A DNA stretch of 64,000 nucleotides from Candidatus Omnitrophota bacterium (GTDB lineage Bacteria; Omnitrophota; Gorgyraeia; Gorgyraeales; Gorgyraeaceae): positions 16,823-80,822 of the forward strand of contig JAUSEX010000026.1 of the NCBI GenBank assembly GCA_030649895.1, read 5' to 3'. Below the pieces are notes generated by a model, which was not told the origin of the DNA, ran no database searches, and was given only the letters and a program-made list of their open reading frames with translations. A program made the translations under genes and the position numbers. Of the stretch, positions 339 through 51,604 are shown one piece after another (the stretch's first letter is position 1; the number at the start of each line of letters is the position of its first letter).

Positions 339-1946
339 CTAGTAGGTGTAACGCTGTTGGGCGCTAGGCACAAACCACTTTATAAAATTATGTCCTATGC
401 CGCTGGGCGCGACTTCAATGCCTTTAAAGCGGCTGTTTAATATAGGCAGGGCATCAGGAACAAATAAAAATAGATACGGCTGATCCCGATACAGGATCTC
501 GTGTATCCTGTGGTAGATAATCTTGCGCTCCTCCTGATTAAAAGTCCTTCTTCCCTTCAAAAGCAAATCATCCACTTCGGGATTGCTGTAACCTACAAAA
601 TTAAATTCGCCTTGTTTTGTTTTGGAAGAATTCCATATATCATACATGTCAGGGTCCATAGATAATCCCCATCCCAAAAGAACAGCTTCAAACCTCCTCT
701 TGTCTATAAACTCGCTGACAAACGCGCTCCATTCTATTATTTTTATTTTAACCTCGATACCTACTTCCTTAAGCCTTCTCTGAATTATTTCCAATACCAT
801 CTTGCGTTCGTCATTGCCCTGATTAGTAATAACAGTAAATGAAAATTTCATCCCGTCTTTTTCCAGGATCCCGTCTCCGTCTTTATCCATCCAGCCGGCT
901 TCTCTTAAAATCTCCCTGGCCTTTTCCGGATTATATTCCAAAGGCTTGACATCTTTATTGTACGCCCAGGATTCAGGTATAAAAGGCCCTGTTGAAACCC
1001 TGCCAAGGCCCAAAAGCACCCCTTTTATAATCTCCTCTTTGTTTATGGCGTAATTTATCGCCCGCCTCACATTGACATCTTTAAACTTCTGGTCCTTTAA
1101 GTTATATCCCATATAAGTATATCCAAAACTTGGAAAATTAAACCTCTGAAAATTCTTTTTGAAAAACTCTGTTTCTGTCTGGCGCCTGAATTGTATGGGC
1201 GTCAAAGACGAGTAATCCACTGCCTGGGCCCTTAATTCAAGAAATAGAGTCGCTGCATCAGGTATGATCCTGTAGATATACCTGTCTATATGAGGCCGGC
1301 CTTCAAAATAACCGCGATTAGAAACCAGCTCCACCCTTTCGCCTGTCTTCCATAATTTAAATTTATATGGCCCTGTGCCGATAGGATTTCTGGCGAATTT
1401 TGTAGTATTAAGGTCTTCTCTTTCCAATAAATGCCTGGGCATAATATTCATTCCCCAGCTGGCAAGCCCTGGACTAAAAGGCTCTTTGTAATAAACCTTT
1501 AATGTGTAATCGTCTACAACCTCAAGATTTTTTACCATCAGAAAATCCCCGCCGTAAGGGGTTCTCACTGCTGGATTAATCAGACTTTTATAGGTAAACT
1601 CCACGTCTTTGGAGGTAAACAGTTCTCCATCGTGCCACTTAACGCCTTTTCTTAAATAAAACGTGATCTCGAGTCCATCCTGCGAGACTTCCCATTTTTC
1701 TGCGAGGTCTCCTGTAAGATTCAGATCTTTATCGTATTTTATAAGGCCGTTAAAAATAAGGCTACAGATAGTGCCTGAAGAACTGTCAGACGCAAGGATC
1801 GGCACAAAGGTTCTTGGCTCGCCTATGGACCCCGTAACTATAGCGTCACCGTAATCAGGCGTAAACCCAAGCAAAAATAAAACCATAAATAAAAAGGCCG
1901 TCCGCCTAAGGCGGACGGCTAATATATTGTTAGTATATTTGTTCAT
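339..1946 (-). CDS. ABC transporter substrate-binding protein, family 5 (peptide/nickel, OppA/DppA-like)
   Basis: Family-5 SBP fold motifs are present, with a signal peptide (MNKYTNNILAVRLRRTAFLFMVLFLLG). The track ORF extends to 1973, but those extra codons are encoded by a repeat arm. The ATG at 1946 is preferred. Confidence 0.8.
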   Translation of the reverse strand: MNKYTNNILAVRLRRTAFLFMVLFLLGFTPDYGDAIVTGSIGEPRTFVPILASDSSSGTICSLIFNGLIKYDKDLNLTGDLAEKWEVSQDGLEITFYLRKGVKWHDGELFTSKDVEFTYKSLINPAVRTPYGGDFLMVKNLEVVDDYTLKVYYKEPFSPGLASWGMNIMPRHLLEREDLNTTKFARNPIGTGPYKFKLWKTGERVELVSNRGYFEGRPHIDRYIYRIIPDAATLFLELRAQAVDYSSLTPIQFRRQTETEFFKKNFQRFNFPSFGYTYMGYNLKDQKFKDVNVRRAINYAINKEEIIKGVLLGLGRVSTGPFIPESWAYNKDVKPLEYNPEKAREILREAGWMDKDGDGILEKDGMKFSFTVITNQGNDERKMVLEIIQRRLKEVGIEVKIKIIEWSAFVSEFIDKRRFEAVLLGWGLSMDPDMYDIWNSSKTKQGEFNFVGYSNPEVDDLLLKGRRTFNQEERKIIYHRIHEILYRDQPYLFLFVPDALPILNSRFKGIEVAPSGIGHNFIKWFVPSAQQRYTY

Positions 1947-1953
1947 ACAATGG

Positions 1954-2025
1954 AAAATAGGGACAGCGACCATTTTTAAAACAGTAGGAACTAAAAAAAT
2001 AAAAAATGGTCGCTGTCCCTATTTT
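1954..2025. repeat. Palindromic element, TAGGGAC-arm family copy 1: two 24-bp perfect inverted arms (AAAATAGGGACAGCGACCATTTTT) around a 24-nt spacer, overlapping the secG stop
   Basis: The inverted repeat was read directly from the sequence. The same arm motif recurs at 12406-12486 and 41241-41303. Confidence 0.7.
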
Positions 2026-6435: not shown

Positions 6436-6479
6436 ATCCGACTCACGAAGTCGCCATACGGCGACTTCGTGAGTCGGAT
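6436..6479. repeat. Perfect 20-bp-stem hairpin (ATCCGACTCACGAAGTCGCC-atac-GGCGACTTCGTGAGTCGGAT) directly after the glgA stop. Family-2 CCGACTC..GAGTCGG element with an inner palindrome
   Basis: Read from the sequence. Related shorter hairpins are at 24885-24907 and 58572-58596. Confidence 0.7.
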
Positions 6480-12405: not shown

Positions 12406-12486
12406 AATAGGGACGGTTCTATAAGTAAAGCTAGATATGTCCCTTTAGGGGACATATCTCCGATTGGCTCTAGAACCGTCCCTATT
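12406..12486. repeat. TAGGGAC-arm palindromic element copy 2. Outer 16-bp inverted repeat AATAGGGACGGTTCTA..TAGAACCGTCCCTATT enclosing an inner 11-bp-stem hairpin (AGATATGTCCC-tttag-GGGACATATCT). It overlaps the DUF4912 stop
   Basis: Read from the sequence. It shares the terminal AATAGGGAC with copies 1 and 3. Confidence 0.7.
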
Positions 12487-16836: not shown

Positions 16837-17931
<1,095 letters not shown>

Positions 17932-20121: not shown

Positions 20122-21081
20122 TCATAAAAAACTGTCTCCGCAAGAAAAATTTTTATGGCCGGCTATAAATTCTTCAGCGGTCATTCTGCGCGAGCCTTCC
20201 GGCTGCAACTCTTCTATTTTTAATAAACCTTTTCCTGTTTTAACAAGTATGCCATTTTTATTGATTTCCAATATTGCGCCGGGCTTATCTTTGATCCACC
20301 TGTCAGGTGAGACGCCTAGCTCGCCTGACAGGTGGGCAGGCCCGGCTTTCCATATCTTAAACATCTTCCCGTTCAAATAAGTAAAACATCCCGGCCACGG
20401 CACAAAGGCCCTGACTCTATTATAAATTTCATCGGCGCTTTTCTCCCAATTAATCAAGCCGTCTTCTTTTTTTAACTTAGGCGCATAGGTTGCCTCGCTG
20501 TTATCCTGGCTTGTAAATTCAATTTCATCGCCCCTTATCAATCTTATGACATCCAGCAGCAGGCCTATCCCTTTTTCGGAAATTTTTTCCAACAATATAA
20601 TAGCGTCATCCTGCAGGTCCAGGGGCAAGGTTGCCTTAGAGATAATATCGCCTTCGTCCATTTTTTCATTCATCCGTATAATAGTTACGCCCGTTTCTTT
20701 TTCCCCATTTGCAATGGCCCAGCTTACAGGCGCCGCGCCTCTATATTTCGGCAAAAGAGAAGCATGAATATTCAGGCAATATAATTTTGGCAGATCCAAT
20801 ACCGCCTTTGAAAGTATCTGGCCAAAGCTCGCCACTATAAACAAGTCCGCGTTAAATTTCTTCAGAAATTCTATGGATTCTTTGGTGTTAACCTGTTGAG
20901 GCTGAAACGCCTTAATCCCCAGCTCTTCCGCCTTTAATTTCACGGCCGTAGGCGTTATCTTGAGAGACCTGCCCTTTTCCCTGTCAGGCTGCGTAACCGC
21001 CAGAATCACCTCTTCGCTCTTAGCAAGCTCTTCCAATATAGGCACGGCAAAGCCAGAGCTTCCAAAAAATATTATTTTCAT
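20122..21081 (-). CDS. fmt: Methionyl-tRNA formyltransferase
   Basis: Formyltransferase N-domain and C-terminal domain. It has the conserved position next to def. Confidence 0.9.
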   Translation of the reverse strand: MKIIFFGSSGFAVPILEELAKSEEVILAVTQPDREKGRSLKITPTAVKLKAEELGIKAFQPQQVNTKESIEFLKKFNADLFIVASFGQILSKAVLDLPKLYCLNIHASLLPKYRGAAPVSWAIANGEKETGVTIIRMNEKMDEGDIISKATLPLDLQDDAIILLEKISEKGIGLLLDVIRLIRGDEIEFTSQDNSEATYAPKLKKEDGLINWEKSADEIYNRVRAFVPWPGCFTYLNGKMFKIWKAGPAHLSGELGVSPDRWIKDKPGAILEINKNGILVKTGKGLLKIEELQPEGSRRMTAEEFIAGHKNFSCGDSFL

Positions 21082-30405: not shown

Positions 30406-30435
30406 AAGCTGGGCAGGTTTAAACCTGCCCAGCTT
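30406..30435 (-). terminator. Intrinsic terminator after rmuC (12-bp stem AAGCTGGGCAGG/CCTGCCCAGCTT, loop TTTAAA, then a U-rich tract on the minus strand)
   Basis: Read from the sequence. It starts directly at the rmuC stop. Confidence 0.65.
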
Positions 30436-36774: not shown

Positions 36775-37998
36775 TTATACTACAGTATATGCGGCTAGGG
36801 ACCTTTTTAATTTATGCCCTAATTTTTTCTTTTTTGTTTCCAGATACCTGACGTTAGCGCAATTAGGCTGCACTTCCATTGGAACCCTCTTTACCACCTC
36901 CAGGCCATAACCGGACAAGCCGACTATCTTACGGGGATTATTCGTGATAAGCTGGATTGTTTTCAACCCAAGATCCGCTAGTATCTGAGCTCCTATGCCA
37001 TAATCCCTTAAATCTGGCTTAAAACCAAGCTGCTCATTCGCCTCTACCGTATCAAAGCCTTTATCCTGTAAAGCGTACGCCTTTATCTTATTAGCCAAGC
37101 CTATGCCCCGGCCCTCCTGCCTCATATACAAAAGAACGCCTCTATTTTTTTCTCCAATAAGCCTCAAAGTTCTTTTAAGCTGGTCCCCGCAATCGCATCT
37201 TCTGGATCCAAATATATCTCCTGTAAGGCATTCTGAATGAACGCGCACCAGAACGTCTTTTTTCCCCTTCACGTCCCCTTTTACTAAAGCCATATGCTGG
37301 TATCTATCAATGCTTGATTCATAAAGATACAATTTAAAAACTCCGTAATCCGTGGGAATCTGGCTATTCGCAATACATGTCACAAGTTTTTCTGACCTGC
37401 GCCTGTAATTTATAAGCTCCGCTATGGTGCCTATTTTAAGCTTATGTTTTTTTGCAAACTTAACAAGGTCTTTCTGTCTCGCCATTGTGCCGTCATTATT
37501 TATTATTTCGCATATAACCCCTGCGGGATAAAGTCCCGCTAATTTCATAAGGTCAACGCATGCTTCCGTATGGCCTGCGCGCGTCAATGTCCCCCCATCC
37601 TTTGCCCTCAAAGGAAATACATGCCCGGGACGAGCCAGATCAGCAGACATTGTCCCGGGATTTATCAGGGCTTTCACTGTAACAGAGCGGTCATGCGCTG
37701 AAATACCCGTAGTAGTATTCTTTTTAGCGTCTACGGAAATAGCCCATGCGGTTTTGAACGTATCCTGGTTTTCCTCATGCATTGGATGCAGGCCCAGTTC
37801 ATCGAGCCTTGAACCTTCCATTGGCATGCATACAAGGCCTTTTGCATGCGTTATAATAAAGTTTATTGCCTGCGGGGTCGCGTATTCAGCCGCAATAACA
37901 AGATCGCCTTCATTCTCGCGGCCTTCATCGTCCACAATAATGACCATCCTGCCTTTTTTCAAGTCCTTGCTGATTTCAGGTATTGTATTAAATTTCAT
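36775..37998 (-). CDS. ribBA: Bifunctional DHBP synthase / GTP cyclohydrolase II
   Basis: N-terminal RibB (DDE.RENEGDL) plus C-terminal RibA (C..C.C zinc motif), about 407 aa. Confidence 0.95.
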
Positions 37999-38012: not shown

Positions 38013-38066
38013 ACCCTGTCCACCCCGCAGGCGGCCCAATTGGGCCGCCTGCGGGGTGGACAGGGT
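38013..38066. repeat. 54-nt perfect GC-rich palindrome (ACCCTGTCCACCCCGCAGGCGGCCCAA|TTGGGCCGCCTGCGGGGTGGACAGGGT) between the riboswitch terminator and the ribBA RBS
   Basis: Read from the sequence. There are 27 of 27 complementary positions and no loop. Confidence 0.8.
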
Positions 38067-38104: not shown

Positions 38105-38240
38105 AAAATACAACGCGCTTACCTCTTCTCTCATCTAGCCTTTCACAATCGGTTCCGGAATCACGCCGGATCTGCCCTCTTTTACGAGAGCTCGCGGACT
38201 TTACCGCCGGTGGGGAATTTCACCCTCTCCCGAAGATACT
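38105..38240 (-). promoter_or_regulatory. FMN riboswitch (RFN element) aptamer in the ribBA leader
   Basis: The minus-strand RNA reads ...CUUCGGGAGAGGGUGAAAUUCCCCACCGGCGGUAAAGUCCGCGAGC...GAUUCCGGAACCGAUUGUGAAAGGCUAGAUGAGAGAAGAGG, matching the conserved RFN core (GGGUGAAAUUCCC, ACCGGCGGUA, CAGUGAAAG, GAUGGGAGAAG). Confidence 0.85.
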
Positions 38241-38244
38241 GTGT

Positions 38245-41142: not shown

Positions 41143-41219
41143 TGGTCGGGACGGCTGGATTCGAACCAGCGACCCCTTGAACCCCATTCAAGTGCGCTAG
41201 CCAACTGCGCCACGCCCCG
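41143..41219 (-). tRNA. tRNA-Pro (anticodon GGG), CCA encoded
   Basis: Hand-folded cloverleaf: C1-G72, A73, anticodon loop AUGGGGU, T-loop GGTTCGAATCC. Confidence 0.8.
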
Positions 41220-41240
41220 CCACTTTAATAGACTTTAATA

Positions 41241-41303
41241 GGGACAGCGCCCTATTTTAACTTGTCCTCTGAAATTTTCGCGTATAAAATAGGGCGCTGT
41301 CCC
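41241..41303. repeat. TAGGGAC-arm palindromic element copy 3 (18-bp arms GGGACAGCGCCCTATTTT / AAAATAGGGCGCTGTCCC, 27-nt spacer), between the gpsA stop and the tRNA-Pro 5' end
   Basis: Read from the sequence. Each arm is also internally palindromic (TAGGG-ACAGCG-CCCTA). Confidence 0.7.
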
Positions 41304-41336
41304 TTAATTATACCACATATAAAGCGCGGTTTCAAA

Positions 41337-42326
41337 TCATTCGGCTTTAGGCTCTCTGGTCATCAGTTCATTAACCGCTAAAAGAGGCGATTTGTTTTCA
41401 AATAAAACCGCGCGCACCTGCTGGGTGATAGGCAGCTCTATATTGTATCTTTTACCTAACTCCACTGCTGAGCAGGAAGTCCACGCGCCTTCTATCTCCA
41501 TCACGCTTTTATTCAGGAGTAACTCCGGCTTATTGCCTTTGCCTATCTCTTCGCCGAACCTGTGATTCCTGCCTTCAGGGCTGATGCACGTGGTAATCAT
41601 ATCCCCCAGCCCGCTCAAGCCCTGTAGAGTATCCCTGTTAGCGCCCATTGCCAGGCCCAAACGCGTCATCTCTGCCAGACCTCTTGTAAGTATCGCTGCC
41701 TTTGTATTTGCTCCGAACCCAAGGCCGTCTGAAATACCTGAGGCAATAGCTATCACATTCTTAAGGGCTCCGCCAAGCTCTACGCCTATTATATCTTTAT
41801 TGGTATAAACCCTGAAATGCTCTGCCCTGAATATATCGCTAACCTTTCTTGCGAAAATCTCATCCTCTGACGCCACTACTACAGCTGTCGGAATCCCCCT
41901 CGCCACTTCAGGCGCTATGCTTGGTCCTGACAATACAGCTATTTCCCTGCCTCCTAAGGCTTCCCTGACTACCTCGCTCATTCTTTTAAGAGTTTTTCCT
42001 TCTATACCCTTTGCTACGCTAACAAAACCAGCCTGTAGTTCTCCTAGGATCTTATTATTTTTTGTAATGACATCCCGCAGAAATCGCGACGGTATTGCCA
42101 GAACTATCAGATTGGAATCTCCGCACGCAACACGCATATCGTCTGTAAGCTGAATAGTCTTTGGGATTTTAAAACCGGGCAAAAATTTCTTATTCTCCCT
42201 GTTCTTTTTTATGGCCTCTACATCTTCTTTAAAAGCGCCCCAGAGCGATACGTCAAACCCTTTATTTTTCAATAAAATTGCTAACGCCGTGCCCCATCCG
42301 CCATCCCCTAAAACCGATATTTTCAC
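41337..42326 (-). CDS. gpsA: NAD(P)H-dependent glycerol-3-phosphate dehydrogenase
   Basis: N-terminal GxGxxG (VLGDGGWGTALA) and GpsA C-terminal domain. Confidence 0.9.
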   Translation of the reverse strand: MKISVLGDGGWGTALAILLKNKGFDVSLWGAFKEDVEAIKKNRENKKFLPGFKIPKTIQLTDDMRVACGDSNLIVLAIPSRFLRDVITKNNKILGELQAGFVSVAKGIEGKTLKRMSEVVREALGGREIAVLSGPSIAPEVARGIPTAVVVASEDEIFARKVSDIFRAEHFRVYTNKDIIGVELGGALKNVIAIASGISDGLGFGANTKAAILTRGLAEMTRLGLAMGANRDTLQGLSGLGDMITTCISPEGRNHRFGEEIGKGNKPELLLNKSVMEIEGAWTSCSAVELGKRYNIELPITQQVRAVLFENKSPLLAVNELMTREPKAE

Positions 42327-42460: not shown

Positions 42461-42543
42461 ACCATAGACACTTCGTAAGCGGGTCAACTAGTTGACCCAC
42501 TTACGAAATATAATAATTAAAAAACAGGCCGTAAACCGTGGCG
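42461..42543. repeat. Family-4 conserved intergenic element (CCATAGACACTTCGTAAGCG ... TAATAATTAAAAAACAGGCCGTAAACCGTGGCGG). It carries a 29-nt palindromic insertion relative to the copy at 61630-61683
   Basis: The two loci align over about 55 nt at roughly 90% identity by manual alignment. Confidence 0.6.
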
Positions 42544-51547: not shown

Positions 51548-51558
51548 TCCTTTCTTAA

Positions 51559-51596
51559 TTCCGCTATGCGATCGGAAGCCCGATCGCATAGCGGAA
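51559..51596 (-). promoter_or_regulatory. Perfect 17-bp-stem hairpin (TTCCGCTATGCGATCGG-aagc-CCGATCGCATAGCGGAA) between fabD and fabG, with no U-tract
   Basis: Read from the sequence. It lies within the fabD-fabG spacer directly upstream of the fabG RBS. Confidence 0.5.
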
Positions 51597-51604
51597 TCGG
51601 TCTA

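Follow-up and report, generated by a model that had tools for sequence, protein, structure and literature searches.

Three short hairpins in Omnitrophota DNA, very probably inverted dimers of the terminal repeats that flank TIRYT-type Y1/HUH transposase genes

Three short hairpins in the 64-kb window (the whole stretch of Omnitrophota DNA analyzed here, 64,000 nt) are, in all likelihood, non-autonomous elements, namely inverted-repeat dimers mobilized in trans by a TIRYT-type Y1/HUH transposase. With the same high confidence, we take each hairpin to consist of two inverted copies of the terminal inverted repeat found on either side of TIRYT genes. TIRYTs, the TIR-associated tyrosine transposases, are Y1/HUH enzymes of the IS200/RAYT superfamily. 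Their architecture is REPIN- or MITE-like, with two arms, a short loop, and no gene; an ORF is absent from all three. The hairpins are as follows:

1951-2028, no strand: element 1 hairpin, 27-nt arms at 1951-1977 and 2002-2028 with one mismatch, 24-nt loop
12406-12486, no strand: element 2 hairpin, two inverted 38-nt units at 12406-12443 and 12449-12486
12433-12459, no strand: element 2 inner hairpin, GATATGTCCC-TTTAG-GGGACATATC, formed from the inner ends of both units
41237-41305, no strand: element 3 hairpin, perfect 20-nt arms at 41240-41259 and 41285-41304

All three palindromes lie where an earlier note, made from the sequence alone, had placed them, and the extra inner hairpin that it had described in element 2 is real. 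Folded as single-stranded DNA, the elements reach -22 to -27 kcal/mol, with z-scores of -7.5 to -9.8 against dinucleotide shuffles. Arm complementarity amounts to 26 of 27 positions in element 1, 20 of 20 in element 3, and 16 outer pairs in element 2, the outer arms of which are AATAGGGACGGTTCTA, with GGGAC-type ends on each unit. The motif shared by the three elements is AATAGGGAC(A/G)G, and exact AATAGGGACNG occurs five times in the window, confined to the three loci (0.08 expected from shuffles). These five copies sustain the earlier proposal of a shared terminal motif, whereas element 3 departs from it: its left end is AATAGGGACAGCGCCCTATTTTA and its right end ...CTGTCCCTTAAT, and the right arm is CTGTCCCTTAATT (TAAGGGAC on the opposite strand), not GTCCCTATT, and does not carry TAGGGAC. 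Comparison of the three loci bore out that the arms are held in common and the loops unrelated; the three copies represent three different arm subtypes. Rfam at gathering thresholds returned nothing at the three hairpin loci, its matches being an FMN riboswitch and two tRNAs, and a consensus terminator scan flagged only the element 2 inner hairpin and a separate hairpin at 1897-1919.

All three hairpins are absent from the corresponding sites of close relatives (88 to 93% protein identity), with a clean junction in one of the three comparisons, that at secG. In the relative used for this locus (L206, GH57 88% identical), secG ends ...GTTAAATAG and continues with TTTTATTATAGATATG, while the window reads ...GTAAAATAG, then 61 nt, then TTTTCCATTGTATG. 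The block missing in L206 is window 1958-2018 (61 nt; on the minus strand GGACAGCGACC...GGTCGCTGTCCCTA, from 2018 down to 1958), and the window sequence AAATAG/61 nt/TTTT stands against AAATAGTTTT in the relative, a single clean junction with no target-site duplication. The insertion is thus an exact block immediately 3' of a pre-existing TAG, and the outer stem of element 1 (AAATAG/CTATTT) is in part made of target sequence. The junction was read directly from the sequences; MAFFT placed the gap poorly in this short alignment.

At locus 2, three relatives, L224 (93%), L202 (92%), and L204 (90%), show an 8-nt overlap (ATGCATAA) between their DUF4912 and GH57 genes, and the DUF4912 gene of the relatives has a TAA stop inside this overlap; the window has approximately 90 extra nt and a new TAG stop at the same junction. 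At locus 3, the relative L217 (gpsA 89%) reads TGGTATAATT, 20 nt, and then tRNA-Pro, and the hairpin is absent, while a sample with a 98% identical gpsA (L225) carries element 3 in identical form. Two further gpsA relatives, L218 and L219, have another gene order and are uninformative for this locus. The exact boundaries at loci 2 and 3 are blurred by flank divergence, and extra bases there (TTATATAG; a CTATTAAAGT duplication) misfit a simple model. Approximately 140 kb of syntenic or related DNA from relatives held almost none of these hairpins. As judged from these sequence comparisons, the insertions appear to have arisen after the lineage separated from relatives whose proteins are 93% identical.

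Several side observations were made at these sites. At the 3' edge of element 3 (window 41303-41282, minus strand), CTATTAAAGT is directly repeated (CTATTAAAGTCTATTAAAGT), a 10-nt duplication. Palindromic elements unrelated to those of the window occur at the DUF4912/GH57 junction in L206 (9915-10000) and L208 (9842-10000), a junction that is a putative insertion hot spot. In L208 (Omnitrophica CG1_02_40_15), a perfect 27-nt palindrome at 16959-16985, TAGGGACAGAACATTGTTCTGTCCCTA, lies in frame within a GH57 AmyA-like gene, where it replaces 15 nt and adds 4 residues.

The features of the genes touched by the hairpins are as follows:

1971-1973, minus strand: spurious ATG within the element 1 left arm, which extends the SBP ORF (339-1973)
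2019-2021, minus strand: secG stop TAG, equal to the TAG of the element 1 motif and already there at the relative's empty site
12482-12484, minus strand: DUF4912 gene stop TAG, supplied by the element 2 right arm
41307-41315, minus strand: extended -10-like box TGGTATAAT upstream of tRNA-Pro(GGG), conserved in L217

The statement that each element sits on a minus-strand stop codon holds for secG and DUF4912 but fails for element 3, as the gpsA stop is a TGA at 41337-41339, 33 nt before that element. Element 3 lies between the box TGGTATAAT, a promoter-like sequence judged by its consensus, and the tRNA-Pro(GGG) gene (41143-41219). One arm had been credited with spurious N-terminal codons of the SBP ORF, and rightly so: as the SBP gene of L206 begins at the ATG that corresponds to window 1946, the true start is likely the ATG at 1944-1946. 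Downstream of the stem on the transcribed strand, the sequence is TATTTTCC for element 1, TATTATATAGCTATG for element 2, and TATTAAAGTC for element 3, with a T-run after element 1 only. The separate hairpin at window 1897-1919 (L206, approximately 20560-20585) is a side observation: it is a 10-bp, GC-rich stem with a T-run, inside the 5' end of the SBP gene, where it encodes AVRLRRTA of the signal peptide, and it is kept in L206 with one compensatory change of a C-G to a T-A pair. A leader or attenuator structure would be one explanation, and a secG terminator that overlaps the next gene another.

A scan of GTDB, one genome per species, with the pattern AATAGGGACNG-N30-60-CNGTCCCTATT found the motif pair in at least 120 loci from many phyla, the shuffled-palindrome comparison coming from viral contigs only. 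The earlier note had named coincidental local similarity as the alternative, and with copies this abundant that alternative falls away. Among the matches listed are Omnitrophota, Planctomycetota, Acidobacteriota (Bryobacterales), Sphingomonadales, and Burkholderiales, together with Collinsella, Bacteroidales, Lachnospiraceae, Spirochaetota, Nitrospinae, and others, and the TAGGGAC sub-family spans at least 10 phyla. Positions that the pattern left free are nevertheless conserved. Across the 125 elements of the matches listed, an A precedes the motif (position -1) in 108, the free base N is A in 92, G in 30, T in 3, and C in none, a C stands at +14 in 97, and a T stands at +18 in 110 and at +19 in 102. 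The extended arm consensus is A-AATAGGGAC-R-G-nn-C-C-(T)-ATTTT, which gives every arm a weak self-complementarity (AAATAGG/CCTATTT); the sphingomonad arms go further, each being a perfect 19-nt palindrome, AATAGGGAC-A-GTCCCTATT.

Every copy of the TAGGGAC sub-family has ATAG as its hairpin foot. Beyond the copies forced by the pattern, the 9-mer occurred 90 times in the 878 kb of the matches listed, against 6.7 expected. Inner stems are lineage-specific across the matches listed, and the spacing from arm to arm varies from 30 to 60 bp in the GTDB loci listed. Whole elements, loops included, recur within a genome in both orientations (L105 and Bryobacterales loci); the three loops of the window are unrelated, so whole-hairpin copying is seen in those other genomes and not here. 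In viral contigs, the motif pair gave 2 matches and two shuffled palindromes of matched composition gave 2 and 0; this is no enrichment, and it gives no sign of phage carriage. The motif strings, searched for in the full-text literature, turned up in unrelated primer or guide sequences only.

An all-versus-all comparison of ORFs over the 120 GTDB loci listed revealed one gene family that directly abuts the hairpins, in seven loci from different phyla, with hairpin arms on both sides wherever both flanks are present. The protein has 205 to 226 amino acids and matches the Pfam Y1_Tnp domain (E = 4e-16). Among NCBIfam models, that of the REP-associated tyrosine transposase (NF047646) fits the protein best, at 67 to 70 bits and below the cutoff of 80, and the IS200 model gives E = 1e-4, far under its cutoff. 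A phmmer search of one TIRYT against PDB sequences gave no match; in a profile search, the best solved relative was E. coli TnpA-REP (4ER8, E = 1e-6). The motifs of the protein are NH(V/I)H (HUH), WQ or FQ, Y(V/I)E(R/N/L)NP, and WSS, followed by a conserved tail GRPLG...GRPRK, and they fit the TnpA-Y1 subclass 2.1 of Quentin et al. 2018. Published TIRYT sequences were rebuilt from the supplementary alignment of Di Nocera et al. 2013 (PMC3733652), and the proteins of the seven loci are 40 to 49% identical over their full length to the TIRYTs GSU2396, Pca3049, and aba2776 (E = 1e-60 to 1e-68), versus 21 to 35% over partial length to classical RAYTs. This Y1/HUH transposase was the only gene found bracketed by the arms, and the comparison of the 120 loci listed found no DDE transposase.

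The association also held reciprocally, from the protein side, in a metagenome scan of which the best 80 of 581 relatives were examined. Among these 80, 66 had at least 150 nt on both sides of the gene, and 55 of the 66 had a flanking inverted repeat of at least 14 nt. GGGAC lay within that repeat, as TAGGGAC, AGGGAC, or GGGGAC, in 46 of the 66 homologs (46 of the 55 that bear a repeat), 21 of the 46 having the GGGGAC form. The left repeat usually begins approximately 55 to 60 nt ahead of the transposase ATG. As a side observation, most transposase loci (L122-L201, L213) show, a few bases inside this left repeat, a TTGACA-like -35 box, and the putative promoter of the transposase gene may overlap this repeat.

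The source names of the closest homologs of the window's proteins place the host in Candidatus Omnitrophota. Four Omnitrophota homologs of an AT-rich TIRYT were found (P0135, P0159, P0166, and P0239, with lineage by source names), and Omnitrophota TIRYT genes are bracketed by TAAATAGGGACAGCGACCATTTAT (L213, Omnitrophica CG12) or TAGGGACAGCGACTATTTT (L210). Compared with the inverted repeats of transposase loci, the element 1 arm agrees at 23 of 24 positions (L147) and 22 of 24 (L213), and the element 3 arm agrees with the repeat of L167 at 22 of 24; the arm type of element 2 (ACGGTTCTA) had no counterpart among the transposase loci compared, the best match being 15 of 20. When the loops of elements 1 and 3 were searched by eye for internal sequence of the transposase loci, the resemblances (ACAG-AGG, CGCG) were too weak. 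Beside one Omnitrophica TIRYT gene, the left arm is present in one copy in one sample and in five copies in two others. In the latter two, five tandem left arms and two right arms occupy L215 4970-5170 and L216 4960-5220, against a single left arm at L213 8640-8700, and this difference suggests ongoing activity at the gene's own ends.

The earlier note had proposed REP- or MITE-like mobile palindromes, and this view gains support from the further copies across phyla, from arms that flank a RAYT-like Y1 gene, and from empty sites at all three loci. A RAYT- or IS200-like gene, which the note had suggested looking for, is present in related genomes, bracketed by the same arms; there is no Y1 transposase gene in the 64-kb window. 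Two further side observations concern the transposase contigs. An Omnitrophota MAG carries a second Y1_Tnp gene (L210 15172-15807), 5 kb from the first and without TAGGGAC flanks, adjoining a gene of the phage integrase family. Contigs with an Omnitrophota-type TIRYT gene are mostly 1 to 2 kb long, possibly because assemblies break at the flanking repeats.

The absence of a Y1 gene from the window bears on a sub-case of the same reading, that the hairpins are inert relics: arms derived from a TIRYT whose gene has been lost from the genome, with copies that are immobile and functionless. The near absence of such hairpins from the approximately 140 kb of relatives' DNA and the presence of three copies of three different arm subtypes would also fit such relics. 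Decay would break the arm pairing, however, which is near-perfect; the insertions postdate the split from relatives with 93% identical proteins, and Omnitrophota relatives carry the TIRYT gene. We consider inert relics unlikely; more probably, the hairpins are elements that a TIRYT mobilizes in trans.

The kind of element is already known, as TIRtrons and their repeats, since 2013, and has barely been studied; it is sister to the REP/REPIN-RAYT system. A TIRtron is a TIRYT gene with its TIR repeats, some of which contain the motif GGGGWSAS (Di Nocera et al. 2013, PMC3733652). As in TIRtrons, a Y1/HUH gene lies here within inverted repeats of the identical type, shown in related genomes, and the protein shares the 40 to 49% identity given above. 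The repeat core AGGGACAG is one base off the published GGGGWSAS, the window arms, which have AGGGACAG or AGGGACGG, matching it at 7 of 8 positions. Solo repeats in scattered dimers were noted for some species (PMC3733652), and the window holds three such dimers in 64 kb. TIRYTs have been equated with the TnpA-Y1 subclass 2.1, which is the RAYT Group 1 of Bertels, and no REP-like sequences were reported near subclass 2.1 genes (Quentin et al. 2018, PMC6006769), while Bertels et al. gave only about 12 copies of the flanking 16-mers for RAYT Group 1. In the published accounts of the TIRYT class that we consulted, we found no TAGGGAC sub-family, no multi-phylum or Omnitrophota spread, no empty sites, no insertion at TAG, and no stop-codon bias.

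With REP/REPIN-RAYT systems, the elements share the inverted pair that forms one long hairpin, the transposase gene flanked by repeats, and arms that are, here, weakly self-complementary. The REPs of subclass 2.4 read GTAG-GGACAG..., with an equal start of the stem, and the "double foot" REP type, with a foot at both ends, has the same layout. By definition, a REP hairpin carries the tetranucleotide GT[AG]G at its 5' foot (PMC6006769), whereas the foot here is ATAG; the protein, at 67 to 70 bits, falls below the RAYT cutoff of 80, is only 21 to 35% identical to classical RAYTs, and has the C-terminal tail GRPLG...GRPRK that classical RAYTs lack. Because of the ATAG foot and the score below the RAYT cutoff, we file the elements with TIRYT repeats and not with REPs. 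The elements resemble IS200/IS605 insertion sequences (IS608, ISDra2) in enzyme superfamily and in insertion 3' of a short sequence without duplication, as at secG. They differ in that the long inverted repeats pair with each other, that the gene is kept at single or low copy number, the abundant form being the short hairpins, that there is no tnpB, that the window elements lack a tnpA, and that the associated protein has the class 2 Y...NP and not Y...Q.

The hairpin ends of IS608 are recognized as single-stranded DNA, and IS200/IS605 enzymes act on the lagging-strand template. We infer by analogy that the elements described here would likewise be recognized as single-stranded hairpins. If IS608/ISDra2 TnpA and E. 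coli TnpA-REP are a guide, the folded single-stranded arms would be bound, probably on the lagging-strand template, by a TIRYT whose gene lies elsewhere in the genome, and this enzyme would cleave at the foot of the hairpin, after (A)TAG at the 5' end and after CCCTA at the 3' end; the excised strand would then be re-inserted 3' of a TAG-like target. To our knowledge, there is no biochemistry for any TIRYT. The + strand of the window has a GC skew of -0.18, and the minus strand carries nearly all of the genes; provided that the skew reflects the direction of replication, the secG TAG would lie on the lagging-strand template. A preference for TAG-like targets would lead to frequent copies exactly on TAG stop codons. 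Effects on transcripts, namely a 3' hairpin, partial termination, and lost translational coupling at DUF4912/GH57, would be a by-product.

A bias toward stop codons is observed. In the window and the GTDB loci listed, 164 long ORFs read into an element, and 43 of these stop at the TAG of the motif, while approximately 35 more end at most 6 nt before it. Among the ORFs that reach the motif (n = 67), 64% are in frame with the TAG, versus 33% expected. A target preference for TAG would explain this bias, and selection against C-terminal extensions would explain it too; the secG junction alone separates the two, and as read from the two sequences it favors the target preference. A bolder proposal, which we advance tentatively and regard as possible but doubtful, is that the TIRYT family prefers to insert 3' of (A)TAG on the lagging-strand template, with co-oriented TAG stops as safe landing sites, and that the 11-nt foot AATAGGGAC(A/G)G, found in at least 10 phyla, is the recognition code of one horizontally spreading pair of enzyme and DNA. 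If such a landing preference and a single spreading pair both existed, the hairpins would thus remodel gene 3' ends systematically, supplying stops, uncoupling overlapping genes, and adding RNA hairpins.

The position of the elements invites a different account, in which they are intrinsic transcription terminators, possibly bidirectional, or stabilizers of mRNA 3' ends that evolved in place, the shared arm reflecting a common requirement or a terminator-binding protein. A stop codon stands directly before two of the three elements, the hairpins have highly stable stems, the GC-rich base of the element 1 stem leads into TATTTTCC on the coding strand, and there is a precedent in that classical REPs affect mRNA 3' ends. 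Like intrinsic terminators, the elements include a stable stem-loop after a stop codon and, at element 1, a T-run. The differences are the sequence shared across phyla, the link to a transposase, the insertion polymorphism, and sites inside an operon and a tRNA leader. All three hairpins are missing in relatives. Element 2 splits two genes that in three relatives share an 8-nt overlap, and element 3 separates a -10-like box from tRNA-Pro, a site at which termination would do harm; neither of these two elements is followed by a T-run. In many phyla, moreover, the arms occur as the inverted repeats around a transposase gene. We judge such an origin very improbable. The protein-recognized terminator that the earlier note had offered as an alternative accordingly finds no support as the primary nature of the elements, given the split overlapping genes, the site before a tRNA, and the T-run at element 1 only; an RNA side effect of the hairpins is possible.

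Mobilization by a TIRYT also accounts for the data better than MITEs derived from a DDE-type insertion sequence, such as a TA-duplicating IS630/Tc1-like element, which we regard as extremely unlikely: the terminal inverted repeats, small size, non-coding content, and AT-rich flanks would suit such MITEs, but the clean secG junction has no target-site duplication, the sole gene found within the arms is a Y1/HUH transposase, and the 120 loci listed contain no DDE gene. Scarcely credible, too, is a role as double-stranded sites at which a nucleoid or regulatory protein of the chromosome recognizes paired AATAGGGAC half-sites, for while the half-sites come as inverted pairs and the sphingomonad arm is a perfect 19-bp palindrome, the arm spacing varies from 30 to 60 bp, there is no tie to promoters save an accidental one at locus 3, close relatives differ in presence and absence, and the transposase link accounts for the half-sites without a separate protein. 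Integron attC sites, DNA uptake sequences, and a T7-like promoter were rejected on inspection. A Nextera adapter artifact was also rejected, as the motif occurs in isolates and long-read assemblies as well; the motif differs, too, from the Nextera adapter sequence.

The hairpins, read as dimers of TIRYT repeats, provide a multi-copy DNA partner for the largest and least understood RAYT-like branch (TnpA-Y1 subclass 2.1, RAYT Group 1, TIRYT), for which two surveys had found no REP-like repeats or low-copy flanking ones only. The elements also appear, from sequence comparison, to be active in Omnitrophota, an uncultivated phylum. The clean secG junction, 3' of TAG and without duplication, opens the mechanism to tests with oligonucleotides. 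Because the hairpins introduce false start codons, change stops, and may contribute to short transposase contigs, annotators should mask them.

Other palindromes were observed in the window. A perfect 54-nt GC-rich palindrome at 38013-38066 lies upstream of the gene at 36775-37998 and just downstream of the FMN riboswitch (38119-38241, minus strand); it may be the terminator of the riboswitch or another inserted hairpin. More long perfect hairpins of unrelated sequence occur at 6436-6479, 51558-51597, 42472-42507, and 30406-30435, one of which adjoins tRNA-Pro(CGG), and the genome seems to be rich in several hairpin families.
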